A program made the position numbers and the translations under genes. A stretch of DNA of 64,000 nucleotides from Candidatus Woesearchaeota archaeon (GTDB lineage: Archaea; Nanobdellota; Nanobdellia; SCGC-AAA011-G17; JACPIM01), in contig CAYSNL010000002.1 in assembly GCA_964432435.1 (NCBI GenBank), forward strand, positions 18,454-82,453. The letters run 5' to 3'. The notes under the pieces are model-generated. The model worked only from the letters and a program-made list of their open reading frames with translations, had not been told where the DNA came from and did no database searches. Each line of letters starts with the position of its first letter. Within the stretch, counting starts at the first letter, position 1. Positions 7,024 through 61,690 of this stretch are shown here, piece after piece.

Positions 7024-7024
7024 A

Positions 7025-21445: not shown

Positions 21446-21446
21446 A

Positions 21447-22547
21447 ATGCAAATTAATTTACCAATGGATGGTCCAGATTGGATTATGGAAAAAAGAAAA
21501 GAGTATTTTAACGAATTTGAAAATATGGAGTTAGATCTAAGTTTGAGATACGGGTTAAGTTTAAGGTTTGATTTAACTGGTCTGGATTTAAGTAATATAG
21601 AGTTGGGAAAGAGTAAAATTAAGGTTGATTGTGAAACTTTTGGGTTTGAAAACTTAGGTGAATATGAAGCCTTTTTTACGAATAACTTTGTAGCTGACCA
21701 AGATAAATTTACTTTATACCATGGTAGCTTATTCAATAATCTGGTAATAATGCATGTAAAAGAAGATAAAACTATCAATATTGACATTCTGTTGGAAGAT
21801 AAATATTATGCTGATCATATATTGATTATTATAGAAAAAAATATCAAAGCAAATATTATTGAAGATATAAAAGGGAATTGTAAATTTAGAACTGGTGTTG
21901 TTGAAATTTATTTAAAAGAGAATTCCAAATTAAATTACTTCTTAGTGGATGAGGTAAAGGAAGGGAACAACTTTACTATTTATAGGGGTTTATTAGATAA
22001 AGATAGTGAATTCAATATGGTTTCTAGTTTATTTTCTAATGGTATTAACAGAATGGAGAATAGTGTTGTGATGAAAGGTGAGAATGCTAGAAGCGAGGTA
22101 TATAATATTTATTTTGGAAATGAAAATAGTAGATATGATATTTATAATGCTATAATCCATAGAAACAGAGATTGTTTTAGCAATATGTTGAGTAAAGGCG
22201 TTGTGAAAGATAAAGCCCAAACTATTCATAGAGGGCTAATTGAAATTAAAAAAAATTTTCCAGGAAATAATGGTTATCAGAGAGAAGAGGCCTTAATCTT
22301 AAATGAAGGTGCAAAAGCGAATGCAGTTCCGAATTTAAAAATAGATAATGATGATGTTAGATGCACTCATGGAGTTGTTATAACTTATTTAGACGATGAG
22401 AAATTGTTTTATTTAATGAGCAGAGGGTTAAGTAGAGAAGAGGCTATTAGAAATTATCTGATTGGTTATTTTTTTCCTGTTATAACTAAATTTCCTGAAA
22501 ATTTGAAAGAAAAGATTATTAAAATAGTTTATGAGAAGTTAAAATGA
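21447..22547 (+). CDS. sufD: Fe-S cluster assembly protein SufD
   Basis: 366 aa SufB/D paralog directly after sufB; shared C-terminal 'KLFYLMSRGLS-EEA' block with SufB. Confidence 0.75.
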   Translation: MQINLPMDGPDWIMEKRKEYFNEFENMELDLSLRYGLSLRFDLTGLDLSNIELGKSKIKVDCETFGFENLGEYEAFFTNNFVADQDKFTLYHGSLFNNLVIMHVKEDKTINIDILLEDKYYADHILIIIEKNIKANIIEDIKGNCKFRTGVVEIYLKENSKLNYFLVDEVKEGNNFTIYRGLLDKDSEFNMVSSLFSNGINRMENSVVMKGENARSEVYNIYFGNENSRYDIYNAIIHRNRDCFSNMLSKGVVKDKAQTIHRGLIEIKKNFPGNNGYQREEALILNEGAKANAVPNLKIDNDDVRCTHGVVITYLDDEKLFYLMSRGLSREEAIRNYLIGYFFPVITKFPENLKEKIIKIVYEKLK

Positions 22548-23737
22548 GAAAAGAAGATTTTCCACTGTTGAATAAGAGAAAAATAATTTATTTAGATAGT
22601 GCTGCTACTACTCAGAAACCAGCTAGTGTAATTTATGCAATTAACGAGTTTTATACAAAATATAACTCTAATGTTCATAGGGGAGTTTATTCAATAAGTG
22701 AAGAGGCTACTTTAGAATATGAATCTTCAAGAGGAAAAGTTGCTGAGTTTATTAATGCTTTACCTTCTGAAATAATCTTTACAAAAGGAACAACTGAAAG
22801 CTTGAATTTGCTGGCTTATTCTTTGACTAGTGACTTAAAAGAAGATGATGAAATCTTATTAAGCGAAATGGAACATCACTCTAACCTAGTTCCCTGGCAA
22901 CAGTTAGCAAAAAAAAAGGACCTAAAGTTAAAATTCATTCCAATTAATGAAAATGGTGAACTAGAATTTAATCCGGATATTATAACTAAAGACACAAAGA
23001 TAGTTTCTATTACTCATGTTTCTAATGTTTTTGGAACTGTGAATGATATTAAAGCAATAGTTAAAGAAGCTCACAAGAAAGGAGCTTTAGTCATAGTGGA
23101 TGGAGCACAAAGTGTACCACATATGAAGGTCGATGTTAAAGATTTAAATGTTGATTTTTTAGTGTTTTCAGGACATAAAATGTTAGGGCCCATGGGTGTT
23201 GGTGTTTTATATGGTAAACTTGACTTATTAGACAGAATGACTCCGTTCAATTATGGAGGGGATATGATAAAAAAAGTATCATTAGAGAACACAGAATTCA
23301 ATGATATTCCTTGGAAATTTGAAGCTGGCACACCAAATGTTGTAGGTGTTATAGGATTAAAAAAAGCGATTGAGTATATTAACGAGGTTAGGATTGAGAA
23401 TATTGAAAAACATAGCAAGGAGCTAGCAAAATATGCAGTTGAAAAACTAAAAGAAATTGGGATTAAAGTTTATGGCAATCCCAGAAATAAATTGGGGATA
23501 GTTTCCTTTAACTTGAATGGAATGCATCCTCATGATGTTTCTAGTCTATTAGACCAGGAAGGAATATGTATAAGAGGCGGACATATGTGTTGCATGCCAT
23601 TAATGAATAAACTTGGTGTAAACGGAGCTTGTAGAATCAGTTTTTATATGTATAATGAGAAAGAAGAGGTTGATATGGTAATAAATACCTTAAATAAGAT
23701 TTTTGTTTTAGCAGGAAAAAATGGAATTACTTTATGA
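22544..23737 (+). CDS. sufS: cysteine desulfurase SufS (class V aminotransferase)
   Basis: 'FSGHKMLGPMGVGVLYG' PLP-lysine block, 'RGGHMCCMP' active-site Cys loop. Confidence 0.9.
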   Translation: MRKEDFPLLNKRKIIYLDSAATTQKPASVIYAINEFYTKYNSNVHRGVYSISEEATLEYESSRGKVAEFINALPSEIIFTKGTTESLNLLAYSLTSDLKEDDEILLSEMEHHSNLVPWQQLAKKKDLKLKFIPINENGELEFNPDIITKDTKIVSITHVSNVFGTVNDIKAIVKEAHKKGALVIVDGAQSVPHMKVDVKDLNVDFLVFSGHKMLGPMGVGVLYGKLDLLDRMTPFNYGGDMIKKVSLENTEFNDIPWKFEAGTPNVVGVIGLKKAIEYINEVRIENIEKHSKELAKYAVEKLKEIGIKVYGNPRNKLGIVSFNLNGMHPHDVSSLLDQEGICIRGGHMCCMPLMNKLGVNGACRISFYMYNEKEEVDMVINTLNKIFVLAGKNGITL

Positions 23738-24107
23738 AGAATTGATGGATCATTATAAAGATCCTAGGAATTATGGCATCTTAGAAGATTTTGATATTAG
23801 GCAATCTGACTCAAACCCCTTATGTGGTGATGAGGTTGTATTTACTGTTAAGATTGAAAATTCTAGGATTAAAGATATTAAATTTTCTGGTGCCGGATGC
23901 GCTATAAGTAAATCTTCTGATTCTATATTGACAGAATATGTTAAAGGTAAAACTATTATCGAGGTTCTGGAAATGAGTAGTGATGATTTTTTGAAGGTTT
24001 ATGGCTTCAAGCCAACTCCAATGAGGATAAAGTGCGCCTTACTCGGGTTTATTGCATTAAAGAAAGGTATTATTGTGTATTTGGGAGAAAAAAATGTTAG
24101 AGATTAG
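23721..24107 (+). CDS. sufU: SufU/IscU-like sulfur acceptor
   Basis: 'HYKDPRNYG', 'NPLCGDEV', 'SGAGCAIS' conserved Cys/Asp ligand blocks. Confidence 0.8.
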   Translation: MELLYEELMDHYKDPRNYGILEDFDIRQSDSNPLCGDEVVFTVKIENSRIKDIKFSGAGCAISKSSDSILTEYVKGKTIIEVLEMSSDDFLKVYGFKPTPMRIKCALLGFIALKKGIIVYLGEKNVRD

Positions 24108-24831
24108 GAATCTATGTGTAAATGTTGAAGGTAACCAAATATTAAAAGGTGTAAACTTAATAGCTAAAGATAATGAAGTAACTGTTTTAATGGGTCCGAA
24201 TGGTAGTGGTAAGTCAACTTTAGCAAATACTTTGATGGGTCATCCTAAATTTGAGGTTACTAAAGGAGAGATTGAATTAAACGGGGTTTCATTAAAAGAA
24301 CTAAGCCCTGATAAAAGAGCTAGGCTTGGATTATTTTTAAGTTTTCAATATCCACAAGAAATTTCTGGAATATCTGTTATAAACTTTTTGAGGGTTGCTT
24401 ATAATTCCATTAAAGAGAAGAAATTAGGCCTACTAGAGTTTAGGAAACTAATTGAGGGAAAAATGGAATTACTTAAAGTGGATAAAACTTTTGGTGATCG
24501 ATTTTTAAATCAAGGATTCTCTGGTGGAGAGAAAAAAAGAAATGAGATCCTACAGCTGGTTGTTTTAGAACCTAGATTTGCAATATTAGATGAAACCGAT
24601 TCTGGAACTGATGTAGACGCATTGAAAATAATAGCTAATGGATTAAATGCTGTTAAAAGTAATACTAAAATGGGTTGTCTTATTATAACTCATTATAGTA
24701 GAATACTCAAATATATAAAAGCAGATAGGGTTTTTATAATGGTGGATGGCAAGATGGTTAAAGAAGGTGGAAAAGAACTAGCTGATGAAATTGAGGATAA
24801 AGGATACTCAAAATACATCATAGATAAGTAG
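24094..24831 (+). CDS. sufC: Fe-S cluster assembly ATPase SufC
   Basis: Walker A 'GPNGSGKST', ABC signature 'GFSGGEKKR', Walker B 'ILDETDSG'. Confidence 0.9.
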   Translation: MLEIRNLCVNVEGNQILKGVNLIAKDNEVTVLMGPNGSGKSTLANTLMGHPKFEVTKGEIELNGVSLKELSPDKRARLGLFLSFQYPQEISGISVINFLRVAYNSIKEKKLGLLEFRKLIEGKMELLKVDKTFGDRFLNQGFSGGEKKRNEILQLVVLEPRFAILDETDSGTDVDALKIIANGLNAVKSNTKMGCLIITHYSRILKYIKADRVFIMVDGKMVKEGGKELADEIEDKGYSKYIIDK

Positions 24832-32679: not shown

Positions 32680-33108
32680 TTATTTAACTATTAAATTTCC
32701 TTTCATTTCTTTATGTCCTGAACCACAAAATACATTACAGAAAAAAGTAAACTCTCCTGATTTATCAGCTATAAACTCTATAGTCTCAGTTTTACCGACA
32801 TCTACTTTCTGGCTTATTCCATATTCTGGAATAGCTATGCCGTGATTTACATCTGTACTTGTTAATTTAATCTTAACTTTATCTCCTTTGTTTACTGTTA
32901 TGGTTGATGGATCAAATTCAAATTTTTTTGCAGTCATATCTATTTCTACTGTTTTCCCAGTTAGTTGATAATTTGTATCGTCATTTCCTGTGTTTACTAC
33001 ATTAACTTGGGGTAAAGTTGTAGAAATTGTTTCTTGTTGTGTTTTAGACTGACATCCGGCCAAAATAAATAAGGCAAGTATTAAAAAAATTAATAAAATA
33101 TTTTTCAT
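32680..33108 (-). CDS. CuA-type cupredoxin lipoprotein
   Basis: Lipobox 'LAGC' after signal peptide; C-terminal 'FFCNVFCGSGHKEM' = C-x3-C-G-x2-H-x2-M CuA-type ligand set with upstream 'HG'; internal Met start (ORF-track start 33153). Confidence 0.6.
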   Translation of the reverse strand: MKNILLIFLILALFILAGCQSKTQQETISTTLPQVNVVNTGNDDTNYQLTGKTVEIDMTAKKFEFDPSTITVNKGDKVKIKLTSTDVNHGIAIPEYGISQKVDVGKTETIEFIADKSGEFTFFCNVFCGSGHKEMKGNLIVK

Positions 33109-33149: not shown

Positions 33150-33515
33150 TCAATCTCTAAATTTTGAGTCCAAACTTAATTTTTTATTTTCTGATAAAGA
33201 TAAAGATAAAAGAGCTGTAAAAATACCTAAATCCCTTACTGCAATATCATTATAACCCAAAGACATGATTATAGGAATCATGCTTATTGCTAGTAACAGA
33301 GAAGCCAATCTAGTAAATAAACCAATTATTAATAAAATTGCCATTAATACTTGAAAAATTGCCATTATAATTATTACTGTATTACCCGATATTGGAATAA
33401 GAGATGGTACTAAAGAAGACCAGATTTCCGGTTGTAGAATACTAGTTACACCAAACCACAGGAAAACTATTCCTAACCCTATTCTTAAAATTAATGTACT
33501 ATAGTCCTTAAGCAT
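33150..33515 (-). CDS. DoxX-family membrane protein
   Basis: 121 aa, 3-4 TM helices, 'RIGLGIVFLWFG' DoxX-like N-terminus; 4-nt overlap with the cupredoxin gene. Confidence 0.55.
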   Translation of the reverse strand: MLKDYSTLILRIGLGIVFLWFGVTSILQPEIWSSLVPSLIPISGNTVIIIMAIFQVLMAILLIIGLFTRLASLLLAISMIPIIMSLGYNDIAVRDLGIFTALLSLSLSENKKLSLDSKFRD

Positions 33516-33663
33516 AAAAAATAAAATATTCTTTAGTTTAAAAGTTTTTTTGAATATACTGGCTTTGTCTAAATAGTCTTCAAAACATTTTACTCTTTAC
33601 ACAAAAATTAGACTTTATACCCAAGAGTTACTTATTACACGAAGCTGAATATACTTAAATAAA

Positions 33664-34755
33664 TTAACCAAAAGTAAAAGCACTAAATTTAAATTCTTTT
33701 GATGAAGTTGTTAGTTTTAATGTGTAGGTCCCATATTTTGAATTAACCACGCTATATAGTCTTGCCTCTTTGATTAAAATAATTGCTTTGTTGTTTTTAA
33801 ACTGAACGTCAGATCCAGTCTGTTCTTTTGTTATTATATTACCGTCAATATAAACTTCTAATTCTATTGGTTTAATAGGTTTATCTGTTACTATATTAAC
33901 TGTTGATGCTGTGAATTTAAGAATTATAGATCCATTCTCGTCTTGATTTTCTAAGCTATCTGGATTGTTTTTCCACTTTCCATCCAAATAAAGCTTGTCT
34001 GGTTGAATGTCCTCTGGTGATTTGTAATCTACTATTTGGTCTGGTTTATATCCTTCTTTATTTCCTAAATTTTGTCCTCTTGGTGTTGCAAATTGATAAC
34101 CAGCATATGTTTCTGGTGTTATTCTGAACCTTATTGCTGTTTCTGGTTCTTTAGTCAAATTCATATTTGTTACATTCTCGCCTAATTCTTTTAATAGCTC
34201 TTGTATTTTCTTCTCTATTTCTTCATAATTACCTTCTCCAAAATGAAAATATTTTATATAACCATCTTTATCTATTAAATATTTAGCTGGCCAATATCTA
34301 TTTTCATAATTATTCCATGTAGAGTAATCATTATCCATTCCAACAGGATATTTTATTTTAAAATCTTTTACAGCCTGCTCAACGTTTTCTGTTTTCTTTT
34401 CAAAATCAAATTCAGGTGTATGAATCCCTATTATTTGCAATCCTTTTTTAGAATATTTTTCATCCCATTCTTTTAAATATGGCAAAGTTCTGATGCAGTT
34501 TATGCAAGTATAAGTCCAGAAGTCAACTAAAACCACTTTTTTCCCTTGAAATTCATTTATTGTTAGCGGATTTGAATTTATCCAGTGTTTAATTCCGATT
34601 ATCTCAGGTGCTTTGCCAGTTTCTGATTTTTCAGAAACGTTAATTATTTTACAACCTATACCTGGAATGCAAACTCCTCTTTCTACCATTATTATCACTC
34701 CTACTATTATGATTATAGTAAATATTAATAAAGTTCTTCTAATTCTGGTTTCCAT
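33664..34755 (-). CDS. membrane-anchored TlpA/AhpC-TSA-like thioredoxin-fold protein with extra C-terminal domain
   Basis: 'LVDFWTYTCINCIRTLPYL' Trx-like CxxC; ~150-aa C-terminal beta-rich extension. Confidence 0.65.
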   Translation of the reverse strand: METRIRRTLLIFTIIIIVGVIIMVERGVCIPGIGCKIINVSEKSETGKAPEIIGIKHWINSNPLTINEFQGKKVVLVDFWTYTCINCIRTLPYLKEWDEKYSKKGLQIIGIHTPEFDFEKKTENVEQAVKDFKIKYPVGMDNDYSTWNNYENRYWPAKYLIDKDGYIKYFHFGEGNYEEIEKKIQELLKELGENVTNMNLTKEPETAIRFRITPETYAGYQFATPRGQNLGNKEGYKPDQIVDYKSPEDIQPDKLYLDGKWKNNPDSLENQDENGSIILKFTASTVNIVTDKPIKPIELEVYIDGNIITKEQTGSDVQFKNNKAIILIKEARLYSVVNSKYGTYTLKLTTSSKEFKFSAFTFG

Positions 34756-35497
34756 TTTTTATTGTTATCGATGTCAAATAAACTAAAAATGCAGGTATTA
34801 ATGGTAATACACAAGGACTTAAAAACGAAATTAAGCCAGCCAAAAAAGCTATTCCTAGATTTATGGATGATCCTAAGTCTATGTAATTTAAATTAAATTT
34901 TAAAAGTAAATTTGCTACAAATGACAAATTTGCTATTTTAGCTAAATTGCTTGTGAAAACTAATATACCCATAGTAATTAATATAGTTCCAAAAATATAA
35001 TTTATGTATTTTAAATAAGGTAGCATTTTTTGAATAAATTTATTTGCCTGATTTGTGAATAATCCAACTAAAAGAAAAGGTATTCCTAATCCTAATGAAT
35101 AAGAAAACAATAATAAAAATGCCTTTGTTGGCTGTGTTATAGCTAATGTTAAAATTCCTCCTAAAATCGCACCTATGCAAGGAGTCCACCCAACTGCAAA
35201 AGCAGAGCCGAACAAAAATGATGCTACATATGAAGATCTAAATTTTCTTTTAATTTGAAATTTATGTTCTTTTTCTAGGAATGGTATTTTTAGTAAATTT
35301 AACAAATAAAGTCCAAAGATCATTATTATTATACCACCGACTCTGCTTAGCCATTTTAAAACTATTAAAGAAGAGTTTGAGAATATTGTTTGAAGTAAAA
35401 TACCGACTAATGAAAAAACTATGCTGAAACCAAGAACAAAGAAAAAACTATTAATAAAAATATTCCATTGATTTTTTGCCATATTTAACAACCACAC
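34739..35497 (-). CDS. ccdA: cytochrome c-type biogenesis/thiol-disulfide transporter CcdA (DsbD transmembrane core)
   Basis: Polytopic; conserved Cys in TM1 ('WTPCIGAILG') and TM4 ('FLSPCVLPLIP'); likely start at second Met (35482). Confidence 0.75.
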   Translation of the reverse strand: MWLLNMAKNQWNIFINSFFFVLGFSIVFSLVGILLQTIFSNSSLIVLKWLSRVGGIIIMIFGLYLLNLLKIPFLEKEHKFQIKRKFRSSYVASFLFGSAFAVGWTPCIGAILGGILTLAITQPTKAFLLLFSYSLGLGIPFLLVGLFTNQANKFIQKMLPYLKYINYIFGTILITMGILVFTSNLAKIANLSFVANLLLKFNLNYIDLGSSINLGIAFLAGLISFLSPCVLPLIPAFLVYLTSITIKNGNQN

Positions 35498-38563: not shown

Positions 38564-39913
38564 ATGAAAAAAAGAGGGCAGGTTACTGTTTTTGTTATTA
38601 TTGGTTTTTTAATTTTAATAATTATTGGTGTTATTTTTTTTATAATTAGTGCTAAAAACAAATTTTCTGAAAGTGAAATTACTGCTTCTAGCATAGATGA
38701 GGTTAGAAGGCAAGTTAATTTGGATGTTAAATTATGTTTTGAAAATATTGTTGAAAATGGAATATTAGATGGGGCTAGACATGGAGGTAATGCTGTTTTA
38801 ATGAATAAACTTGGTTCTGATTCTGTTCGTGAGAGTGGGTTGGATATTTGTAAAACCTTGTTAACGGCTACACAAGAAATAAGACTTGCTTTTGGGCCAA
38901 ATAGGAAATATACTCAAGATAGTGTGTGTGTTTTATATGATTCTAATAACATTGCAATAAATGAAGAACAGATTAATGATGATACAGTGCTTAACTTTGT
39001 TAGTGCTCCTCTTGACCTTAATAATTTTGAGAATTCTTTAAAGAATTATCTTAGCGATAGATTACCTAGGTGTCTTAATGAATTTAATCAATATAAAACT
39101 AAAGGCTGGGGTATTGGGACATTGAATGTAGAAAACATTGATGATGTTGGTGGTGTTGCTGAGCTATTAAAACAACGTAAAGATGAATATATCATTATTA
39201 ATCCAGGATTTGATACTTCTTGTCCGATGGAGGGGAAATTTGTTGCTTCTTTGAAAATGCCTTTAAAATTTTCAAGAGTAAGGTCTATTGGCAATGAAGA
39301 GTCTTTTGTACTTGATAATCAGGAATTCATATATAATGCAAATCTTAAATATTTTTATACAAAATCAGATGAGCTATTAAAAGATCTTCTTTCTATCGGG
39401 TTTGAACAAACAAAAATTTCTGAAATGCCGAATGCTGGCGTATGTAAAAACTGTTGGGATATAAAGGATGGGCTTGTCGAATTTGAAAGAAAGGTTGAAG
39501 ATCCATCTTCTGGTGGTTGTGATGGCTGTCATTTTTACAAAGCTACAGATCCTAATACTGGTGCGTATTTTTTTAATATTAAATGTGGCGAGTATTTTAT
39601 GAGTTTAAATAATCCAATAAATGTTAATGGTAAGGAAATTGTTTTAAAAGAAGCTAATGTAGACAATATTATAGTTAGTGTTGATGGTGTTTCTGGAGAA
39701 ACAATTAATAAAGATTCTACTGTTGATGTTGGTGGTATTGACTTTACTTTTGATAATTATGATCAAGATACTGGGAAGGTTACTCTAATAATTGGGGAGA
39801 GTTTAAGTTACTTATGGGGTTATTATTTTGGTTGTAGTTCAAATGTTGATATTTGTTTTATAGAATGTGATAATAATATGGGGCCTGCAACAATGCAGCC
39901 TAATGATTGTTAA
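38564..39913 (+). CDS. Cys-rich secreted/anchored protein
   Basis: N-terminal TM 'VTVFVIIGFLILIIIGVIFFII'; ~17 Cys including a C-terminal 'GCSSNVDICFIECDNN' cluster. Confidence 0.45.
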   Translation: MKKRGQVTVFVIIGFLILIIIGVIFFIISAKNKFSESEITASSIDEVRRQVNLDVKLCFENIVENGILDGARHGGNAVLMNKLGSDSVRESGLDICKTLLTATQEIRLAFGPNRKYTQDSVCVLYDSNNIAINEEQINDDTVLNFVSAPLDLNNFENSLKNYLSDRLPRCLNEFNQYKTKGWGIGTLNVENIDDVGGVAELLKQRKDEYIIINPGFDTSCPMEGKFVASLKMPLKFSRVRSIGNEESFVLDNQEFIYNANLKYFYTKSDELLKDLLSIGFEQTKISEMPNAGVCKNCWDIKDGLVEFERKVEDPSSGGCDGCHFYKATDPNTGAYFFNIKCGEYFMSLNNPINVNGKEIVLKEANVDNIIVSVDGVSGETINKDSTVDVGGIDFTFDNYDQDTGKVTLIIGESLSYLWGYYFGCSSNVDICFIECDNNMGPATMQPNDC

Positions 39914-39914
39914 T

Positions 39915-40445
39915 ATGAAAAAAATAATTTTAATTTTATTTTTTGTAATGATTTTTGTTAGTCTGGTGAGTGCTAGTGGATTGTATCCTGTTTCTATGGA
40001 AGACTTAGTTCATCCGGCTTGTAATAATAATGGCAGATGCGATTATTTTGAAAGTTCTCAAACTTGTCCTAATGAATGTAATGCAGAAACTTTTAATACA
40101 GATACTGTTAGCGGTGAGACTAGTACTACTACAATAATTAGTTCATCATATACAACTATTCCTGTTATAAATGAACAAATCAATGAACAAGTGGATGAAA
40201 TTAATGAACAATCTTCTGTGGTTAGTATTATAGCAAAACAACCAGTAAAAATACCTTGGACTTTAATTTTGGCTTTTGGGTTTACTATTGGAATTATTTT
40301 TTTGGTTGTAGTACTTTATTTGTGGATTAAGGGACAAACTAAAACATCAAAACAAAGTGAAAATAAAAAAAGAAAGGTTAGATCTAATAATGAAGAAGAT
40401 GAATTTGGATTACCATCTAGGCCTAAACGCGGGTTTGGTGTTTAA
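39915..40445 (+). CDS. secreted Cys- and Thr-rich protein with C-terminal TM anchor
   Basis: Signal 'MKKIILILFFVMIFVSLVSA'; 'CNNNGRCDYFESSQTCPNECN'; Thr-rich linker; TM 'ILAFGFTIGIIFLVVVLYLWI' + basic tail. Confidence 0.4.
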   Translation: MKKIILILFFVMIFVSLVSASGLYPVSMEDLVHPACNNNGRCDYFESSQTCPNECNAETFNTDTVSGETSTTTIISSSYTTIPVINEQINEQVDEINEQSSVVSIIAKQPVKIPWTLILAFGFTIGIIFLVVVLYLWIKGQTKTSKQSENKKRKVRSNNEEDEFGLPSRPKRGFGV

Positions 40446-40869
40446 GTTTATAGGTTAGTATTAAGTTTATTATTATTAAAACATCTAATACTAAACAACC
40501 CATACAAAACGCTTTTAAAATAAAAATTTCTATGAACAATAAATAGAAAGCAAAGAATAAAGAAAATATGGTTAGCAAATAAATGTAATTAATGGTATGT
40601 TTCTCTTTTTCTGGATTTTTATAAGCTATTCTTGATAAAACCAAGATTACTGTGAAAAAGAGTATTCCTAAAAAAGCTACTGGAATACCTATCTTTGGTG
40701 GAAATAATGAGTAAATGCTTTTATTAACCACATCACAAGAAAAAATCTCTCCTATGTCGCAGAATCGTTTTCCTGGTTTAGAATAGTGCAAATAAATTAA
40801 ATAAATTGACACTAATGTTGATAATACAGAAGTAATTGAGATATAATTCAATAGTTTTTTTTCTTTCAT
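40423..40869 (-). CDS. vitamin K epoxide reductase (VKOR) family membrane oxidoreductase
   Basis: Four TM helices; loop Cys pair 'CDIGEIFSCD' and TM4 'CMGC' CxxC, the arrangement characteristic of VKOR. Confidence 0.6.
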   Translation of the reverse strand: MKEKKLLNYISITSVLSTLVSIYLIYLHYSKPGKRFCDIGEIFSCDVVNKSIYSLFPPKIGIPVAFLGILFFTVILVLSRIAYKNPEKEKHTINYIYLLTIFSLFFAFYLLFIEIFILKAFCMGCLVLDVLIIINLILTYKLKHQTRV

Positions 40870-40915
40870 CTTGTTTTTAGAAAAATTTATATTTATAACT
40901 CTTTTGATATTAAGA

Positions 40916-41695
40916 ATGATTAATTTTAATATTGACCCGGTACTTTTAAGATTAGGACCTATTCAAATAAGATATTATGGGCTTGTTTATGTTATTGGAC
41001 TTTTACTTGGTTTGTACATATTAAATAAAGCAAGGAAAAAAGGTATTTTGGATTTAAAAGATGGTCAAGAATATGATCTAATATTTTATATAATGTTGGG
41101 TATGTTGATTGGTGCTAGGTTATTTCATGTTATCTTTTGGGGTTTAAATTATTATATTAGTAATCCTTTAAAAATATTTTATTTGTGGGAAGGAGGAATG
41201 AGTTTTCATGGGGGTCTAATTGGTATTCTAGTAAGCGGATATATTTACTGTGAAAAAAATAAGATAAATGTGGCAAAACTAGCAGATGTTTTAACTTTAC
41301 CTGCTGTTTTTATTTTAGCCTTAGGGAGGATTGTAAATTTTATTAATCAAGAAATATATGGAACAATAACGGCTTTGCCTTGGTGTGTAGAATTTAAAAG
41401 CATAGAAGGTTGTAGACATCCTGTGCAACTTTATGCAGCTTTAGGTAGATTTATAGCTTTTTTTATATTATTAAAATTTGGAAATAAACATAAAGAAGGC
41501 TTTGTTTTTTGGAATTTTGTTTTTCTTTTTGGTCTAGGTAGATTATTTTTAGATTTTTTAAGAGAGGATATAAGATATCTTGGGCTAAGCTTTGGACAGT
41601 GGTTTAGCTTAATTATGTTAATTTTAAGCGGTTATGTTCTATTTAGATTTTATATGGAGGATATTAAAAAAGTATTTTCTTTTAAGAAGAAATAA
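40916..41695 (+). CDS. lgt: prolipoprotein diacylglyceryl transferase homolog
   Basis: 'IDPVLLRLGPIQIRYYGLVYVIGLLLGLYI', 'GARLFHVIFWG', 'PLKIFYLWEGGMSFHGGLIG' match Lgt signature blocks; ATG 40916 (ORF-track TTG start 40871). Confidence 0.7.
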   Translation: MINFNIDPVLLRLGPIQIRYYGLVYVIGLLLGLYILNKARKKGILDLKDGQEYDLIFYIMLGMLIGARLFHVIFWGLNYYISNPLKIFYLWEGGMSFHGGLIGILVSGYIYCEKNKINVAKLADVLTLPAVFILALGRIVNFINQEIYGTITALPWCVEFKSIEGCRHPVQLYAALGRFIAFFILLKFGNKHKEGFVFWNFVFLFGLGRLFLDFLREDIRYLGLSFGQWFSLIMLILSGYVLFRFYMEDIKKVFSFKKK

Positions 41696-42259
41696 ACCAA
41701 AGACTATAATTATTATACTTAAAATAAATGAATTAAAAAATAATTTATACGCAAAGTCTTTAAAAAATTCATAAGGGAATAAATTAATTAAATTATCTTT
41801 TGAAGGGTCTAATAAATATAAATCATTATTAAAGAGCAGTTTATGAAAAGTGTTGTTGAAAAAGTCCTCAAAATTTATAAAATAAAAAGATAAAATTATG
41901 ATTATTGATGTTATACCTGAAATTATGAGTGATTTTCCCAGGGTTTTATAGTTTAAGATTATTAGGACTATTAATAATACTATGATTATATACAATAAGA
42001 TTAATGTTTTGTATATTAGGTTCTTAACATCTTTTAAATGAAACTTTTCCCTTTCATTAAAGAAATCTGTTGTTAAATCTTTATTATTTTGGAAATAGGA
42101 GAACAGATTCTTTGTGTTTGTTAGTGCTAATTCTTTCGGTATGGAAATATTTAGTTTATCAAATTCCTTCTGATAGAAACTTAGGTTATAAATTAAAAGC
42201 CTAAAATTAAATAAAAAAATGAATAATACTAATATGATTATTAAAAGTGTTTTTCTCAT
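41639..42259 (-). CDS. polytopic membrane protein, unknown function
   Basis: 206 aa, 4-5 hydrophobic segments. Confidence 0.3.
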   Translation of the reverse strand: MRKTLLIIILVLFIFLFNFRLLIYNLSFYQKEFDKLNISIPKELALTNTKNLFSYFQNNKDLTTDFFNEREKFHLKDVKNLIYKTLILLYIIIVLLIVLIILNYKTLGKSLIISGITSIIIILSFYFINFEDFFNNTFHKLLFNNDLYLLDPSKDNLINLFPYEFFKDFAYKLFFNSFILSIIIIVFGLFLLKRKYFFNILHIKSK

Positions 42260-42396: not shown

Positions 42397-43365
42397 ATGG
42401 GAGAAAAAATGGAAAATAATAGTGTTAATGATAAAAAATCAAGTTTCTTGGGTAAAATCAAGTTTTGGCAAATTTCTAGTATTGTGCTATTAATATTATT
42501 TGTAGTGTCTATAATAGCTAATTTTTCAGGCAGAGGTTTATCTGGTGCTATTAGTAAAGATGATGCACAAGGAAAAATACAGCAATATGCTAATATTGTT
42601 ACAGGTGGGGCTATTGTTGATGTTGGTAGTATATCTGATGACGGGGAAAATGGGTTGTATAAAGTACCTCTTACTGTAAAAGGGCAAATTATGACTGGTT
42701 ATATAACGAAAGATGGGAAATTATTTTTTCCTGCAGCTGTTAATCTAGATGATTTTTTTAAACAGGTTGGAGACATAGAGGGTAAAACAACTGAACTACT
42801 TGATAATGAGCAAGTTCAAGTACCTAATGAACCTGTTAGGGTTAGTGTAGATGACGATCCTGTTTTAGGGGATAAAAATGCTCCTGTGATTATTCTAGAA
42901 TTTAGTGATTTCCAATGTCCTTATTGTGGTAGATTTGAGAGCCAAGCCTTTGATCAAATTAAGAAAGATTATATTGATACTGGCAAGGTTAAGTTTGTTT
43001 ATAGGGATTTTCCATTAAACAGCATACATCCTTATGCACAAAAAGCTGCTGAAGCTTCTGAATGTGCCGATGAACAAGGGAAATACTGGGAATATCACGA
43101 TAAATTGTTTGAAAATCAGCAGGCTTTGACTGTTGAAGATTTAAAGGAATACGCAAAAGAATTAAAACTGAGCATAGATAAGTTTAACGATTGTTTAGAC
43201 TCAGATGCTATGGTGGAAGAAGTTCAGAAAGATCTTAGTGAAGGTGAAAGCTATGGTGTTACTGGTACACCTGCTTTTTTTATTAACGGTCTTTTATTAG
43301 AGGGAGCTCAGCCATTTGAGAACTTCAAGAAAATCATTGACGAGGAATTAAGCAAAACAGCTTAA
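42397..43365 (+). CDS. membrane-anchored DsbA-like thiol:disulfide oxidoreductase
   Basis: N-terminal TM; 'FSDFQCPYCGRFE' CPYC active site, 'GVTGTPAFFING' cis-Pro loop. Confidence 0.65.
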   Translation: MGEKMENNSVNDKKSSFLGKIKFWQISSIVLLILFVVSIIANFSGRGLSGAISKDDAQGKIQQYANIVTGGAIVDVGSISDDGENGLYKVPLTVKGQIMTGYITKDGKLFFPAAVNLDDFFKQVGDIEGKTTELLDNEQVQVPNEPVRVSVDDDPVLGDKNAPVIILEFSDFQCPYCGRFESQAFDQIKKDYIDTGKVKFVYRDFPLNSIHPYAQKAAEASECADEQGKYWEYHDKLFENQQALTVEDLKEYAKELKLSIDKFNDCLDSDAMVEEVQKDLSEGESYGVTGTPAFFINGLLLEGAQPFENFKKIIDEELSKTA

Positions 43366-43649: not shown

Positions 43650-44033
43650 GTGGAAATGAAAAAAAGTTTTTTGGTTATCTTAATCATTTTTGCTTTAGGC
43701 ATTTTTGGTTATTGGGGATTTACCTTTTATGTAGTTAAAGGTAATAGTGTTAGTCCTGCGTTTGTTGATTGTTTAGTTGATAACGGTGTTGTTATGTATG
43801 GTTCTGCTACATGTCCGTACTGTCAAACACAAAAAGAAATGTTTGGAAGAAGTGCAACAAAAGAATTATATAATAAAGATGGATATATTGAATGCCCTGA
43901 AAACCAGAAATTATGTGAATCTAAGGGTATAACAGGCTATCCGACATGGATTATCAATGGCACTAAATATGAAGGAGTTCAAAGCATAGAATTATTATCA
44001 AGTATAACTGGATGTGAATTATCTTATGAGTAG
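43650..44033 (+). CDS. membrane-anchored thioredoxin-like protein
   Basis: TM then 'YGSATCPYCQTQK' CxxC and 'GYPTWIING'. Confidence 0.55.
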   Translation: MEMKKSFLVILIIFALGIFGYWGFTFYVVKGNSVSPAFVDCLVDNGVVMYGSATCPYCQTQKEMFGRSATKELYNKDGYIECPENQKLCESKGITGYPTWIINGTKYEGVQSIELLSSITGCELSYE

Positions 44034-50249: not shown

Positions 50250-51722
50250 TTATATATCTAGCAATTTATCTTGTGTGTATTGTTTGCCTGTTTTTAAAGC
50301 AATTTCTGCCTTTTGTAGTTCTGATCCTAAGTCTAGAGCATGGGAGATCTCTGATAGAACATTGTTATTTGCTAGTTGTGCAATTAATTCTCCGGCTACT
50401 TTTCCTTCATACTCTTTTATTGGTGAACTATCAGTGTTTAAGTGAGTTACTGTAATTTTTTCATTATTAAGTTTTATAATAAAATTTCCTTTTGGATCTT
50501 CTTTAAAATTTACTAAATTCCCCAATGGACTTGCCTTTATTAATTCTTTATCTCTATATTTTTCTATTATGTCTTTTGCATCTGTCCAGTTTTTTTCATA
50601 AATATGTGCACTACCGGAAATAATTGTTAATGTTCCTAGTTTTAGTTGTGTTTCTTTTGAGATTTCTTTTACTATATTGCCCTGTAATCTTCTTAAGGCA
50701 AATGCATTTCTTGGCCAGGCTTCATACATGTCATTACTTCTAATATAGGAGGTCATATGTAATGTATCGTCTTGTACTAGGCAATGTACAAAATTAATGC
50801 ATGGTGGTTCATCTCCTGATGAATCTTTATCATAATTCCAGGTAAAAGCTATTGCGCTTCTTTTATGTGGTTTTTTCTTTAATAGATCAATTATGAATTG
50901 GATTTGATCGACTTTTGTTCCATCTTTTAATTCTGCAGCTCTTAATCTTTGTCCATATGTGTAGTTTACATCCGGAATTTCTAGATTGGTTGTTACTTGA
51001 GGTATGTATCCTTCTAATTCTTCTTTGGTAAATTGAAAATACTCTTCCCATTTGTAATTGTCTGGGTCTTCATCTGAAATTACTGTTGAGATGTTGATTA
51101 ATTCTTTTTGGTCACCGCCATATGAAGAAGCTTTAGTAGCACCAAACCTCATGATATTATAAAGAATTTCCAGCCATGCGCTGCCAGTTGTTCTTTCCCT
51201 TATTTTATGAACTGTTGGGTCTGATGGGAATCTTTCTGGAGCTTCAATTTTATTTTCAGGGAATGTTTCTGGTTCTCCATAACTTGGTTTTTTTTCAAGT
51301 TCTTGTATTTTTACAGATATATCTGAGGGAGTTTTTCCTCTCATATCTATTATTTCTACGTTATTTCTGAAATTATCAATTGCTTCTTTTGGGATCGCTT
51401 TATGTAATTTAGAGTTTTGTATTCCTTTGATACAATGTTCTTCATCTACGCCTTTTTCTTTTAGTGCTAATAATGCCTCACCTGATTTTGCTAGGTCTTG
51501 TCCTGTTATAATTAGATATCTGATATTTTTATTAGCTAAACAATTCCTTATAAGAAAGCTTATTCCTCCATTAAAGTATAGTTGACCTATTGCTGAATAT
51601 AGGTTAGAATCTAAATTATCTGCAATTATCTTTCTAGGACTCCATAAAGTAATTACACCAATATTGGATTCTTGATTTCCTAGGATTACATTCTCTTTTT
51701 CATATAAAGGCCAATCAAACAA
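50250..51722 (-). CDS. thymidylate synthase (ThyA)-like domain with ~190-aa N-terminal and ~100-aa C-terminal extensions
   Basis: Core 'PPCINFVHCLVQDDTLHMTSYIRSNDMYEAWPRNAFAL' matches the ThyA active-site Cys-to-R-S-x-D block; flanking extensions unassigned. Confidence 0.65.
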   Translation of the reverse strand: MFDWPLYEKENVILGNQESNIGVITLWSPRKIIADNLDSNLYSAIGQLYFNGGISFLIRNCLANKNIRYLIITGQDLAKSGEALLALKEKGVDEEHCIKGIQNSKLHKAIPKEAIDNFRNNVEIIDMRGKTPSDISVKIQELEKKPSYGEPETFPENKIEAPERFPSDPTVHKIRERTTGSAWLEILYNIMRFGATKASSYGGDQKELINISTVISDEDPDNYKWEEYFQFTKEELEGYIPQVTTNLEIPDVNYTYGQRLRAAELKDGTKVDQIQFIIDLLKKKPHKRSAIAFTWNYDKDSSGDEPPCINFVHCLVQDDTLHMTSYIRSNDMYEAWPRNAFALRRLQGNIVKEISKETQLKLGTLTIISGSAHIYEKNWTDAKDIIEKYRDKELIKASPLGNLVNFKEDPKGNFIIKLNNEKITVTHLNTDSSPIKEYEGKVAGELIAQLANNNVLSEISHALDLGSELQKAEIALKTGKQYTQDKLLDI

Positions 51723-58078: not shown

Positions 58079-58813
58079 ATGAAAATGCAACCACAAATGT
58101 CACATCAGGTAATGGGTTATGATAGAACAAGTACTATGTTTAGCCCTGATGGCAGGTTATTGCAAGTTGAATATGCTAAAAAAACAGTTAAACAAGGTAC
58201 AAGTGCAGTTGGTATTGTCTGTAAAGATGGTGTAGTTTTGGTAGCTGATAAAAGAATAGTTGAAAAATTAATAGTCCCTGAAAGTGTTGAAAAAGTTTTT
58301 CAAGTTGATGATCATGTAGCTGCAACAGCTTCTGGTATATTGAGTGATGGCAGAATCTTGATTGAGAGAGCACAAGTTTTAGCACAACAGCATAAAGTTA
58401 CTTATGACTCACCAATAGATGTTCAAAGCATTGTTAAAGATATTTGCAATATAAAACAACAATTTACGCAATATGGCGGGGCAAGGCCATTTGGTGTAAG
58501 TATTTTATTTGCTGGTGTTGATGGCGATGAAAATGAAGGGGTTCCTAAGTTATTCTTAACTGATCCGACAGGAATCTTCTTTGAGTTTAAAGCTACAGCA
58601 ATTGGTGAAGGTGAAATTGAGATAAAGGAAATTTTAGATAGTGAATATAAAGAGAATATTACTATTGAAGATGGTATAAAATTAGCTATGAAGACTATAA
58701 AAAAGGTTTTAGGGAAAGAGTTTGATATTTCAAGAATTGATGGAGCATATATCACTGTTAGCGAGAAGAAGTTTAATAGGTTAACGCAAGATAAACTTTC
58801 TAAATATAAGTAA
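58079..58813 (+). CDS. psmA: proteasome alpha subunit
   Basis: 'YDRTSTMFSPDGRLLQVEYAKK' alpha-subunit N-terminal signature; AAGGAGG upstream. Confidence 0.9.
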   Translation: MKMQPQMSHQVMGYDRTSTMFSPDGRLLQVEYAKKTVKQGTSAVGIVCKDGVVLVADKRIVEKLIVPESVEKVFQVDDHVAATASGILSDGRILIERAQVLAQQHKVTYDSPIDVQSIVKDICNIKQQFTQYGGARPFGVSILFAGVDGDENEGVPKLFLTDPTGIFFEFKATAIGEGEIEIKEILDSEYKENITIEDGIKLAMKTIKKVLGKEFDISRIDGAYITVSEKKFNRLTQDKLSKYK

Positions 58814-58814
58814 G

Positions 58815-59510
58815 ATGGTTAACGTAGATAAAGCAGTAGTTGCTAGATTAGAAAAGAATGGAAAGAAATTCGAAATTTTAGTAGATTGTGATAAAGCATT
58901 AGAACTGAAGCAAGGCAAAAGTATTTCTATAGATGATGTACTTGCTGTTGATGCAATTTACAAAGATGTAAAGAAAGGAGATAAAGCTAGTGAGCATGAT
59001 TTACAGAACATATTCAAGACTAATGATGTTAGAGAAATAAGTAAGATAATTATTATTAAAGGAACTGTACAATTAACTAGAGAGCATTTAGCCAAACAAA
59101 GGGAAGAAGTTAAAAAACAGATAATTAATCTTATACATAGAAATGCGGTTGATCCTAAAACTGGTTTACCACATCCGCCGCAAAGAATAGAAAGTGCAAT
59201 GGAAGAAGCTAAAGTTCACATTGATGAAAATAAATCTGCCGCAGACCAAGTTGATGATATTTTAAAGAAATTAAGGGTGATAATACCAATTAAATTTGAG
59301 ACGAAAAAAATCGAGGTTGTTATACCGGCCAGATTTGCGGGTCAAAGTTTTCATGTTTTAAAAAGTTACGGGAACCCAAGCAACGAATGGTTAAATAACG
59401 GTAATCTAAAATCAACTTTAGAATTGCCTGGTGGTTTAATTGATGAATTTTTTTCTAAATTAAATGGATTATGCCATGGAGAGGTGGAGAGTAAAATATT
59501 GGAGGAATAA
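58815..59510 (+). CDS. SBDS-family ribosome maturation protein
   Basis: 'VVARLEKNGKKFEILVDCDKALELKQG' FYSH domain. Confidence 0.85.
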   Translation: MVNVDKAVVARLEKNGKKFEILVDCDKALELKQGKSISIDDVLAVDAIYKDVKKGDKASEHDLQNIFKTNDVREISKIIIIKGTVQLTREHLAKQREEVKKQIINLIHRNAVDPKTGLPHPPQRIESAMEEAKVHIDENKSAADQVDDILKKLRVIIPIKFETKKIEVVIPARFAGQSFHVLKSYGNPSNEWLNNGNLKSTLELPGGLIDEFFSKLNGLCHGEVESKILEE

Positions 59511-59512
59511 AG

Positions 59513-60220
59513 ATGGGAGAACTTAAAGTAAAAGATAAGGATATAGTAGTCCCTGGAGATATATTAGCTGCCGGTATGGATTTTTTACCAGCAGGAGGAG
59601 CTTTTAGAGAAGGAGAAGATATTATTGCTTCTCAAGTTGGAGTCGTAAACGTAAGTGGAAGATTAATAAAATTAGTTCCATTAAATGTAAAATATATACC
59701 TAAAAGAGGAGATACTGTTATTGGAAAAGTTGTTGATGTTACAAATAGTTGTTGGTTTGTTGATATAGGTTATTCAAATCAGGCATGTATCCCTCTTAGG
59801 GATGGAAGCATGGATTATATACCAAAAGGTGCAGATTTAACACAATATTACACTTATGACGATTTTGTAGTTGCGAATATTACTAGTGTTTCTAAAGATA
59901 AAGAAATAGATTTATCTATGAAGGGTCCTGGATTAAGGAAACTATCTGAAGGTAGGATGATAAAAGTTAATTCTGCAAAAGTACCAAGAATAATTGGTAA
60001 GCAGGGAAGTATGATTTCTATGATTAAACAAATGACAGATTGCAGGATAATTGTTGGCCAGAACGGTTATGTATGGTTGTATAGCATTGATCCTGCAAAA
60101 GAGTTAATAGCTGTTGATGCTATTAAAAGAATTGAAGATAGGGCGCATATTCATGGATTAACAGATGAAATTAAAGCATATTTAGAAAGTAAGGTAGGTG
60201 TTAAAAATGCCGTACAATAA
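59513..60220 (+). CDS. rrp4: exosome RNA-binding subunit Rrp4 (S1 + KH)
   Basis: S1 block 'PKRGDTVIGKVVDVTNSCWFVDIG', KH block 'IIGKQGSMISMIKQMTDCRIIVGQNGYVWL'. Confidence 0.8.
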   Translation: MGELKVKDKDIVVPGDILAAGMDFLPAGGAFREGEDIIASQVGVVNVSGRLIKLVPLNVKYIPKRGDTVIGKVVDVTNSCWFVDIGYSNQACIPLRDGSMDYIPKGADLTQYYTYDDFVVANITSVSKDKEIDLSMKGPGLRKLSEGRMIKVNSAKVPRIIGKQGSMISMIKQMTDCRIIVGQNGYVWLYSIDPAKELIAVDAIKRIEDRAHIHGLTDEIKAYLESKVGVKNAVQ

Positions 60221-60905
60221 AAGATTTGATGGTAGAAAATTTGACGAACTAAGGGAAATTAGTGCTGAAGTTGGTGTAATTCCTAATGCTGATGGTAGTG
60301 CAAAATTTAAGATTGGTAAAACAATAGCTGTTGCTGCTGTTTATGGCCCAAGAGTATTGCATCCTAGATTCCTTCAGAATCCTACAAAGGGTGTTTTGAG
60401 ATGTAATTACAATATGATGAGTTTTTCTGGTTCTGGTGAGAGAATCAGGCCTGGTCCAAGTAGGAGAAGTAAAGAAATTAGTTATATAACAGAAAGAGCT
60501 TTAGAACCTGTTTTAGATTTAAATGAATTTCCAGGAGCTGTGATTGATGTATTTATTGAATTAATACAAACAGATGCTGGGACCAGATGTGCAGGTATTA
60601 CAGCTGCTGCTTTAGCTTTAGCAGATGCAGGTTTTCCTATGAAAGATTTAGTTTCAGCTATTGCCGCTGGAAGGATAGAAGATAAAATAGTCGTTGATGT
60701 TTCTAAGGAAGAAGAAGACTATGAAGGTGGAATGGCTGATATCCCGGTTGCAATAATGCCTAGGACTGGTGAAATAACTTTATTACAAATGGATGGTTTA
60801 GTTACATTAGCCGAGCTGAAAGAAGTTTTAAAAGCTGTAAAAAAGGCATGCGATCAAATCTATAAAGCACAAAAAGATGCTTTAAAATTGAGGTATTCAA
60901 AATGA
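60198..60905 (+). CDS. rrp41: exosome catalytic subunit Rrp41 (RNase PH fold)
   Basis: 'RFDGRKFDELREI', 'DGSAKFKIGKT', 'QTDAGTRCAGITAAALALADAG' RNase PH blocks. Confidence 0.85.
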   Translation: MLKMPYNKRFDGRKFDELREISAEVGVIPNADGSAKFKIGKTIAVAAVYGPRVLHPRFLQNPTKGVLRCNYNMMSFSGSGERIRPGPSRRSKEISYITERALEPVLDLNEFPGAVIDVFIELIQTDAGTRCAGITAAALALADAGFPMKDLVSAIAAGRIEDKIVVDVSKEEEDYEGGMADIPVAIMPRTGEITLLQMDGLVTLAELKEVLKAVKKACDQIYKAQKDALKLRYSK

Positions 60906-61690
60906 ATAATAATATAGTCACAAATCACGTTGTTAATCTTTTAGAAAAGGAGTTTAGATTAGACGGCAGAAAATTAGATCAATTTAGAGATATAAAAATT
61001 GAATATGGAATAAGCAATAAATCTGCTGAAGGTAGTGCTTTGGTAAAAATTGGTAAAACAGAAGTTATTGCTGGTGTTAAGATGGATGTTGGTGCACCAT
61101 ATCCAGATAAGCTTGATGAAGGAACTATTATAGTTAATGTTGAACTAATACCTTTAAGTTCTGCTGAGTTTGAGTCTGGACCACCATCAATTAAAAGTAT
61201 TGAAATGGCTAGGTCTGTAGTTGATAGGGGGTTAAGGGAAAGCAAGGCTATTGATTTTAAGAAATTATGCATTAAGAAGGGAGAAAAGGTATGGACTATC
61301 TTAATTGATGCCTATAGTCTGAATGATGATGGAAATCTAGCTGATGCTATGGGGTTAGCTACTTTAGCTGCTATTAAAGATGCTAAATATCCTAAATATG
61401 ATGAAAAAACTGAAAAAATTGATTATATAGAAAAAACAAAGAAAGGTGTCGATTTAAAAGAGATTCCAATACCTGTGACTATTTTAAAAATAAAAAATAA
61501 ATTTATTGTTGATCCTGTATTAGATGAAGAGAATGCTATGAGTGCTAGATTAACTGTAACGACTGTGGAAGATGGAAGAATATGTGCTTTGCAGAAAGGC
61601 GGAGACTTGGCTTTAACTATAGATGATGTAGAGAAAATGATTGAACTAGCTACTAAGAAAGGTAAAGAGTTAAGAAAGCTTTTTAAATAA
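60902..61690 (+). CDS. rrp42: exosome subunit Rrp42 (RNase PH-like, non-catalytic)
   Basis: 'RLDGRKLDQFRD', 'EGSALVKIGKTEVIAGVK'. Confidence 0.85.
   Translation: MNNNIVTNHVVNLLEKEFRLDGRKLDQFRDIKIEYGISNKSAEGSALVKIGKTEVIAGVKMDVGAPYPDKLDEGTIIVNVELIPLSSAEFESGPPSIKSIEMARSVVDRGLRESKAIDFKKLCIKKGEKVWTILIDAYSLNDDGNLADAMGLATLAAIKDAKYPKYDEKTEKIDYIEKTKKGVDLKEIPIPVTILKIKNKFIVDPVLDEENAMSARLTVTTVEDGRICALQKGGDLALTIDDVEKMIELATKKGKELRKLFK

Follow-up and report, generated by a model that had tools for sequence, protein, structure and literature searches.

A bacterial-type Lgt homologue with a Lit-like neighbour in a Woesearchaeota archaeon

The closest described counterparts of the locus analysed here are the prolipoprotein diacylglyceryl transferase (Lgt) of E. 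coli (5AZB/5AZC), the lipoprotein intramolecular transacylase (Lit) of B. cereus (7B0O/7B0P), the lgt2-lit2 operon of Listeria monocytogenes and Enterococcus, bacterial VKOR-DsbA folding systems, and the AliA and AliB proteins (arCOG02177/arCOG02178) of Haloferax volcanii. In E. coli Lgt, residues Y26, H103, R143, N146, G154, and R239 are absolutely required, and G145 and Y235 are essential for viability (PMC13251419). The 2026 study from which these assignments come has a section, based on RefSeq genomes, headed 'Lgt is ... absent from archaea', and Lgt is likewise given as absent from archaea in the 2025 description of Haloferax AliA/AliB (PMC12462473), which are presumed to have the same role, the lipidation of lipobox cysteines. 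Two conserved arginines of AliA/AliB have been put forward as counterparts of R143 and R239 in Lgt (PMC12462473), and the published HHpred similarity between AliA and the Lgt family PF01790 has a probability of only 29%. Here we describe an Lgt homologue encoded in a 64-kb stretch of DNA from a Woesearchaeota (DPANN) archaeon (the whole stretch is termed the window). The open reading frame (ORF) concerned is likely to encode a functional Lgt-family enzyme native to this lineage, its predicted activity being based on comparison with the bacterial enzyme:

40916..41695, + strand: lgt, prolipoprotein diacylglyceryl transferase homologue (259 aa, seven predicted transmembrane helices)

The ORF is intact over 259 codons, from an ATG at 40916 to a stop at 41695 on the + strand, and the assignment of its product to the Lgt family is well past chance level. 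The protein matches Pfam PF01790 (LGT) with an E value of 2.6e-62 and 210.7 bits (cut-off 24.9), the match extending over positions 1-238 of the 240 in the profile, and also passes the cut-off of the NCBIfam lgt equivalog TIGR00544 (162.8 bits versus 118.9). It aligns with E. coli Lgt (5AZB) with an E value of 8.1e-30 at ~26% identity, and a hydropathy scan identifies seven hydrophobic segments, as many as the E. coli enzyme has transmembrane helices. An AlphaFold2 model, for which the input alignment contained 44 homologues, has a predicted local distance difference test (pLDDT) score of 90.5 and a predicted template modelling (pTM) score of 0.86; in a Foldseek comparison with the PDB, its sole significant match is 5AZB (E 2.1e-12, TM-score 0.78/0.72), the next match having an E value of 0.6. 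These results bear out an earlier, sequence-only reading of this DNA, which had proposed an Lgt homologue on the strength of three peptide blocks, all of which are found in the translation.

The archaeal protein retains all six residues that E. coli Lgt absolutely requires, with Y26, H103, R143, N146, G154, and R239 corresponding to its Y21, H98, R138, N141, G149, and R209 (5AZB chain numbering is native numbering plus one, as checked on the H103 and Y26 contexts). The six are invariant in 121 close homologues and 93–100% conserved in 150 representatives at 50% identity. Also retained (E. coli numbering) are R73, G98, G99, G104, D129, G142, E151, and R246. The E. coli signature G142-R-L-G-N-F-I-N-G-E-L-W-G154 reads GRIVNFINQEIYG in the archaeal protein, with G145 replaced by V and G150 by Q, and elsewhere Y235 is replaced by F and E243 by D. 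Position G145 is occupied by A, G, or V across the homologue clade, and genuine bacterial Lgts vary too at G145, G150, and Y235 (A145 in Dojkabacteria, Y235I in B. thetaiotaomicron). We did not treat these positions as defining the family.

A further difference from E. coli Lgt is in the periplasmic head domain (~165–195), which in the archaeal protein has shrunk to a loop of ~10 residues containing Cys157 and Cys166. Among 271 Lgt homologues, 180 have both cysteines, 87 have neither, and four have one only. Because such both-or-neither co-occurrence is the pattern expected from a disulfide, Cys157 and Cys166 probably form one, which would be made by the neighbouring DsbA/VKOR system (below). 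The pair appears to mark a sub-clade of the archaeal Lgts.

The host of the gene is archaeal, as the sequence-only reading had supposed. The window contains an archaeal exosome superoperon:

58079..61690, + strand: host marker, outside the lipoprotein system, encoding proteasome alpha, SBDS, Rrp4, Rrp41, and Rrp42 (Pfam assignments)

The best named matches of its Rrp41 are from Woesearchaeota/Nanoarchaeota (89–90% identity), and Lgt, the Lit-like protein described below, and Rrp41 are all recorded on one NCBI contig of 96,082 bp. GC content is uniform across the window (~29%); Rfam and tRNA scans of the window gave no matches. The VKOR-Lgt-Lit-DsbA arrangement has been assembled independently from five sequencing runs, and distant Lgt homologues are flanked, on contigs of 128–209 kb, by genes for S17e, Alba, tRNA-intron endonuclease, Rpb6, deoxyhypusine synthase, ATP-dependent DNA ligase, and ABCE1. 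Given the contig shared with archaeal markers, the uniform GC content, the repeat assemblies, and the marker-flanked distant homologues, contamination is excluded for practical purposes.

Database searches identify 6398 proteins that match the archaeal Lgt at E ≤ 1e-10. Among the best 120 of these 6398 (48–73% identity), every named protein is from Woesearchaeota, Nanoarchaeota, or an unclassified archaeal metagenome-assembled genome (MAG), and automatic annotation already labels the named proteins prolipoprotein diacylglyceryl transferase. Close clusters from Woesearchaeota/Nanoarchaeota number more than 100, and the named proteins among the nearest 150 representatives at 50% identity come from these lineages too. 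An exhaustive search recovered 361 representatives at E ≤ 1e-30, and the named ones that were sampled, down to 39% identity, are again from Woesearchaeota/Nanoarchaeota, one of them on a 910-kb contig. A pattern-based scan of GTDB species representatives confirmed one Woesearchaeota locus (52% identity) and six bacterial loci (28–35%). In a supplementary table of a 2021 comparative study of Woesearchaeota, lgt appears as OG0000180, between secY (OG0000150) and rpl15 (OG0000190), the main text of that study never taking up lipoproteins, and our literature search found no paper that discusses Lgt in DPANN. Lgt in Woesearchaeota is known to annotation pipelines and has been overlooked by the field. 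The earlier statement that Lgt homologues are generally not found in archaea agrees with the literature, but is wrong for Woesearchaeota/Nanoarchaeota, with their >100 close clusters and large lgt orthogroup; the accompanying statement that archaeal lipoprotein maturation enzymes are unknown was overtaken in 2025 by the description of AliA/AliB. The protein encoded at 40916..41695 is not an AliA, because it is a clear PF01790 member while AliA reaches that family with the low HHpred probability given above; this was concluded with no direct comparison with arCOG02177/02178. A neighbour-joining tree of 175 Lgt sequences with six bacterial ones did not separate archaeal from bacterial Lgts and identified no donor; in the same tree a Waddliaceae Lgt is nearest to the representative P0234. 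Because this tree is uninformative, we make no claim on the monophyly or origin of archaeal lgt.

The most informative neighbour of lgt is a convergent gene overlapping its 3′ end, which the sequence-only reading had overlooked:

41639..42259, − strand: Lit-like lipoprotein intramolecular transacylase homologue (206 aa, four transmembrane helices), convergent with lgt, with a 57-bp 3′ overlap

Its product matches PF07314 (E 1.8e-26, 93.7 bits versus a cut-off of 24) and TIGR01906 (77.8 bits versus a cut-off of 74.8), and aligns with B. cereus Lit (7B0O) with an E value of 5e-11 at 27–30% identity. We use the name Lit-like because the cut-off of the NCBIfam Lit equivalog NF051877 is not reached, and the protein is best regarded as a TIGR01906/PF07314 member and not as an orthologue of characterised Lit. 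The catalytic residues of B. cereus Lit, a His85/His153 dyad, have been defined (PMC8275575); His73, His138, and Phe142 of the Lit-like protein correspond to B. cereus His85, His153, and Phe157, and are invariant in 27 homologues. Asp88, Val89, Lys90, Phe149, and Asn159 of the B. cereus enzyme are also retained, whereas Trp162 is a tyrosine in the archaeal protein. An AlphaFold2 model of the Lit-like protein (pLDDT 93.7) is matched by Foldseek to Lit structures only (7B0P, TM-score 0.88, root mean square deviation 2.0 Å).

On either side of the lgt/Lit-like pair are genes for thiol-disulfide exchange:

40423..40869, − strand: VKOR-family membrane thiol oxidoreductase (PF07884, E 1.5e-23; CMGC active site, four Cys)
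42397..43365, + strand: membrane-anchored DsbA-like thiol:disulfide oxidoreductase (Thioredoxin_4, E 4.7e-40; DSBA, E 2.5e-22; CPYC at residue 174)
43650..44033, + strand: small membrane-anchored thioredoxin-like protein (weak Thioredoxin/DSBA matches; CPYC at residue 55)

The VKOR gene is divergent from lgt and directly adjacent to it, 46 bp apart, an adjacency also present in the related loci L008–L012 and L016. Of the earlier proposal that lgt is flanked by VKOR and DsbA genes, the VKOR part stands; the DsbA-like gene is one gene away, with the Lit-like gene between. The wider proposal of an extracytoplasmic maturation island was sound, as the grouping recurs in L016 and L060. In L016, another Woesearchaeota MAG, the order is DsbA-Lit-Lgt-VKOR. 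In L060, where Lgt is 44% identical, one strand encodes a cupredoxin, a P-type ATPase, and DsbA, and further along the same strand is an overlapping run of four genes, for a small thioredoxin, Lit, Lgt, and a GNAT acetyltransferase. This thioredoxin, directly before Lit-Lgt, is a homologue of the protein encoded at 43650..44033. In L019 a cupredoxin gene follows Lgt. L018, a putatively archaeal marine contig, encodes DsbA, a lipobox thioredoxin, a lipobox cupredoxin, Lit, and glutaredoxin, the lipobox thioredoxin and lipobox cupredoxin genes being directly upstream of the Lit-like gene, whose product is recorded from a Tara sample of the 0.1–0.22 µm size fraction. We considered whether the VKOR/Lit/DsbA neighbourhood is general to archaeal lgt and rejected this. 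Four distant Lgt homologues on long contigs lack the cluster, which is therefore characteristic of a sub-clade.

Haloarchaea and Bacillus are known to have lipoproteins with N-acetylated cysteines. The GNAT gene of L060 (L060:10723-11175) shares its strand with lgt and overlaps the lgt 3′ end; its cytoplasmic product is unlikely to catalyse lipoprotein N-acetylation.

The redox genes resemble bacterial VKOR-DsbA folding systems in that a VKOR with a CxxC motif and loop cysteines and a membrane-anchored, CPYC-containing DsbA-like protein are encoded together, but in the archaeon they bracket lipoprotein-modification genes. Lgt, through Cys157/Cys166, and nearby Cys-rich secreted proteins may be clients of this VKOR/DsbA system. 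Just upstream of VKOR are two genes for secreted or anchored proteins without a credible family match, one of 449 aa with 14 Cys (38564..39913, + strand) and one combining a signal peptide with a Cys-rich region and a transmembrane helix at the C-terminus (39867..40445, + strand). Both are plausible DsbA/VKOR clients.

The arrangement can also be compared with the Listeria/Enterococcus lgt2-lit2 operon (Armbruster 2019, via PMC8275575), in which Lgt and Lit are adjacent, with copper-related genes nearby; in the archaeal loci the counterparts of the latter are the cupredoxins and the P-type ATPase. The bacterial operon is co-transcribed and located on mobile elements, whereas the pair in the window is convergent and no mobile-element genes were seen there. 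Adjacency of lgt and lit in archaea is observed in the window, L016, and L060, but only in L060 are the two genes on the same strand and overlapping. Unlike lgt2, archaeal lgt is a core gene of its lineage, and VKOR and DsbA redox-folding genes are part of the cluster. With these differences, the Lgt-Lit-cupredoxin linkage resembles the copper-responsive operon of Listeria, which suggests a possible link to copper.

A candidate Lgt substrate is encoded in the window:

32680..33108, − strand: cupredoxin with a type-II signal peptide and lipobox LAG/C (Cupredoxin_1, E 1.8e-13)

Its N-terminus reads MKNILLIFLILALFILAG immediately before the lipobox Cys (C), so that the 'LAGC' lipobox picked out by the sequence-only reading is present, and a lipobox census of the window returned this protein as the single textbook case. 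The cupredoxin contains a CuA-like C-x3-C-x3-H-x2-M motif, CNVFCGSGHKEM, which is shared by its homologue in L018 (L018:2704-3150; VCEVFCGSGHDDM), the lipobox cupredoxin encoded before the Lit-like gene. Beside the cupredoxin gene, 33150..35497 (− strand) encodes a second envelope redox module, comprising DoxX, a 363-aa thioredoxin-like protein (Redoxin/Thioredoxin_10), and a DsbD/CcdA-type transmembrane reductant conduit.

Conservation of the head-group-binding arginines and of the proposed catalytic His, Tyr, and Asn residues argues for canonical Lgt chemistry, which, by analogy with work on E. coli, would produce a thioether between the lipobox Cys and the glyceryl carbon of a phosphoglycerol lipid. 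In the mechanism we propose, Lgt would act as a seven-helix membrane enzyme in which R138 and R209 (E. coli R143 and R239) bind the phosphoglycerol head of a phosphatidylglycerol-type lipid. With the participation of H98, Y21, and N141, the lipid-glyceryl group would be transferred to the lipobox Cys thiol of exported pre-proteins, of which the cupredoxin encoded at 32680..33108 may be one, to give a thioether anchor. The signal peptide would then be removed by a peptidase other than any identified here, after which the Lit-like enzyme would move the sn-2 acyl chain onto the new N-terminal amine, yielding a lyso-form lipoprotein.

The nature of the lipid is constrained by the last of these steps, since what Lit moves to the N-terminal amine is an sn-2 acyl chain in ester linkage (PMC8275575), a transfer impossible for ether chains. 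Anchors of this ester type, which an active Lit would need, are not known from archaeal lipoproteins. Because an invariant Lit dyad is encoded beside lgt and the Lit step needs an ester chain, we tentatively favour ester-type anchors, at least in Lit-bearing members, at somewhat below an even chance. We judge a bacterial-type diacyl phosphatidylglycerol donor, scavenged or self-made, to be somewhat more probable than an ether lipid of archaeal type. According to the 2021 comparative study, Woesearchaeota have neither GGGP nor DGGGP synthase and cannot make archaeal diether lipids. Some have genes for bacterial fatty-acid synthesis and glycerol-3-phosphate (G3P) dehydrogenase. That Woesearchaeota run a complete bacterial-style ester-lipid lipoprotein pathway, from Lgt through a peptidase to Lit, is possible but doubtful.

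Several observations weigh against such a pathway, or against an active Lgt at its head. DPANN generally take ether lipids from archaeal hosts, in which case the donor would be archaetidylglycerol, with the opposite glycerol stereochemistry. Searches for Lsp (signal peptidase II) comprised Pfam on all window ORFs that were mid-sized or predicted to have multiple transmembrane helices, a Peptidase_A8 regular expression, and phmmer with an E. coli LspA sequence, covering 914 kb of related loci; no Lsp (Peptidase_A8) was found in the window or in these loci, and K03101 (Lsp) is not among the KEGG Orthology terms found in the Woesearchaeota supplement. As no Lsp was found, the cleavage step needed by Lit is unaccounted for. 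A lipobox is present in only ~1 of the 24 window ORFs with a hydrophobic N-terminus. Two positions essential for E. coli viability, G145 and Y235, are V and F in the archaeal Lgt, the Lit-like protein scores 40.9 bits with the Lit equivalog NF051877, far under the cut-off of 400, and most archaeal lgt genes are without an adjacent Lit.

The lipid question also allows an alternative in which an Lgt-family enzyme has adapted to ether lipids, attaching diphytanylglyceryl (archaeol) groups from host-scavenged archaetidylglycerol, the Lit-like protein then catalysing something other than an O-to-N acyl shift. DPANN are thought to get lipids from their hosts, Woesearchaeota reportedly lack the synthases for archaeal lipids, and archaeol thioethers occur on haloarchaeal lipoproteins (PMC12462473). 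The clade-specific features of the protein, namely the mini head loop with its Cys pair, D in place of E243, and the loss of Y235, could also be read as adaptation, but the head-group and catalytic residues are as in bacterial Lgt, with no obvious remodelling. Lit chemistry cannot move an ether chain, yet the Lit catalytic dyad is invariant, and archaea with archaeol anchors employ AliA/AliB, not Lgt. On balance we regard adaptation to ether lipids as unlikely. We consider it improbable that Lgt and Lit are instead a horizontally acquired accessory module for copper stress, like lgt2-lit2 of Listeria/Enterococcus, and not a housekeeping pathway. In Listeria, copper induces lit2, which shares a transcript with lgt2 and genes for copper resistance (PMC8275575), archaeal Lit/Lgt genes recur beside cupredoxins and a P-type ATPase, a weak transposase match is found 6 kb away in L016, and Lit-like proteins are far rarer than Lgt (38 versus 6398 database matches). 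Against these points, lgt forms one of the large orthogroups of Woesearchaeota, is widespread among them, and is tabulated alongside secY and rpl15; its relatives remain archaeal to as low as ~39% identity; it is found in conserved chromosomal synteny without Lit; and in the window it is not flanked by mobile-element genes, nor does GC content vary.

Loss of function would be compatible with the substitutions at G145 and Y235, the reduced head domain, and the small number of local lipobox proteins, all of which might be expected of an Lgt paralogue that is decaying or has been put to another use and has ceased to lipidate proteins. However, the ORF is full length, the model is confidently Lgt-like, lipobox proteins are encoded beside the partner genes, and hundreds of diverged homologues show no variation at the six essential residues, which indicates purifying selection and makes decay very improbable. 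The joining or binning of a bacterial fragment with archaeal DNA might be suspected from the typically bacterial character of the Lgt, Lit, VKOR, and DsbA families, and one homologue, labelled 'Nitrosarchaeum' and on a 5-kb contig, does look mis-binned. The single 96-kb contig carrying Lgt, Lit, and Rrp41, the uniform GC content of ~29%, the identical arrangement in five independent assemblies, and the homologues embedded among archaeal markers on contigs of up to 910 kb leave contamination or mis-assembly with a very small probability.

On the evidence presented, a canonical Lgt with its full set of essential residues is carried by a whole, very diverse DPANN lineage, in which some members have Lit as well. 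The premise that archaea have no Lgt, used both in the 2025 work presenting AliA/AliB as the 'first' archaeal lipoprotein biogenesis enzymes and in the 2026 Lgt phylogenomics, is corrected; beyond existing annotation, the analysis contributes a Lit-like partner for Lgt, its recurrent linkage with Dsb and cupredoxin genes, and a documented conflict with current papers. The Lgt-Lit-cupredoxin-Dsb association may extend the Listeria link between copper and lyso-lipoproteins to another domain of life, and archaeal Lgt offers an experimental handle on which lipids uncultured, lipid-auxotrophic archaea hold in their membranes. If the ester-lipid pathway operates, Woesearchaeota membranes would contain bacterial-type diacyl phosphatidylglycerol, from bacterial hosts or from their own fatty-acid/G3P genes, and protein anchors would show the 'lipid divide' between archaea and bacteria to have been crossed in nature. 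Archaea would then have two unrelated solutions to lipidation, AliA/AliB in Euryarchaeota and Lgt in DPANN.

The start of lgt and its upstream region were inspected directly:

40870..40915, no strand assigned: divergent VKOR/lgt intergenic region, 46 bp, with an A/T-rich box, TTTATATTTATAA, at 40886..40898

Upstream of the lgt ATG there is an in-frame TTG at 40871, but translation probably does not start there, since the ATG is used both by independent gene calls and by the database protein P0001. By direct reading, the centre of the TTTATATTTATAA box is ~24 nt 5′ of the ATG at 40916, a position compatible with an archaeal TATA box and a leaderless mRNA; boxes of this kind are expected often by chance at 29% GC.

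Elsewhere in the window, a 172-aa ORF (6986..7504, + strand) has five predicted transmembrane helices and no Pfam match. A SUF iron-sulfur assembly operon (20042..24831, + strand) contains two genes of the SufB/D family and one for a cysteine desulfurase-like class-V aminotransferase, with two smaller ORFs after them, and a 490-aa fusion protein with MtrA-like, thymidylate-synthase, and PterinBD-DUF4346 domains is encoded at 50250..51722 (− strand).

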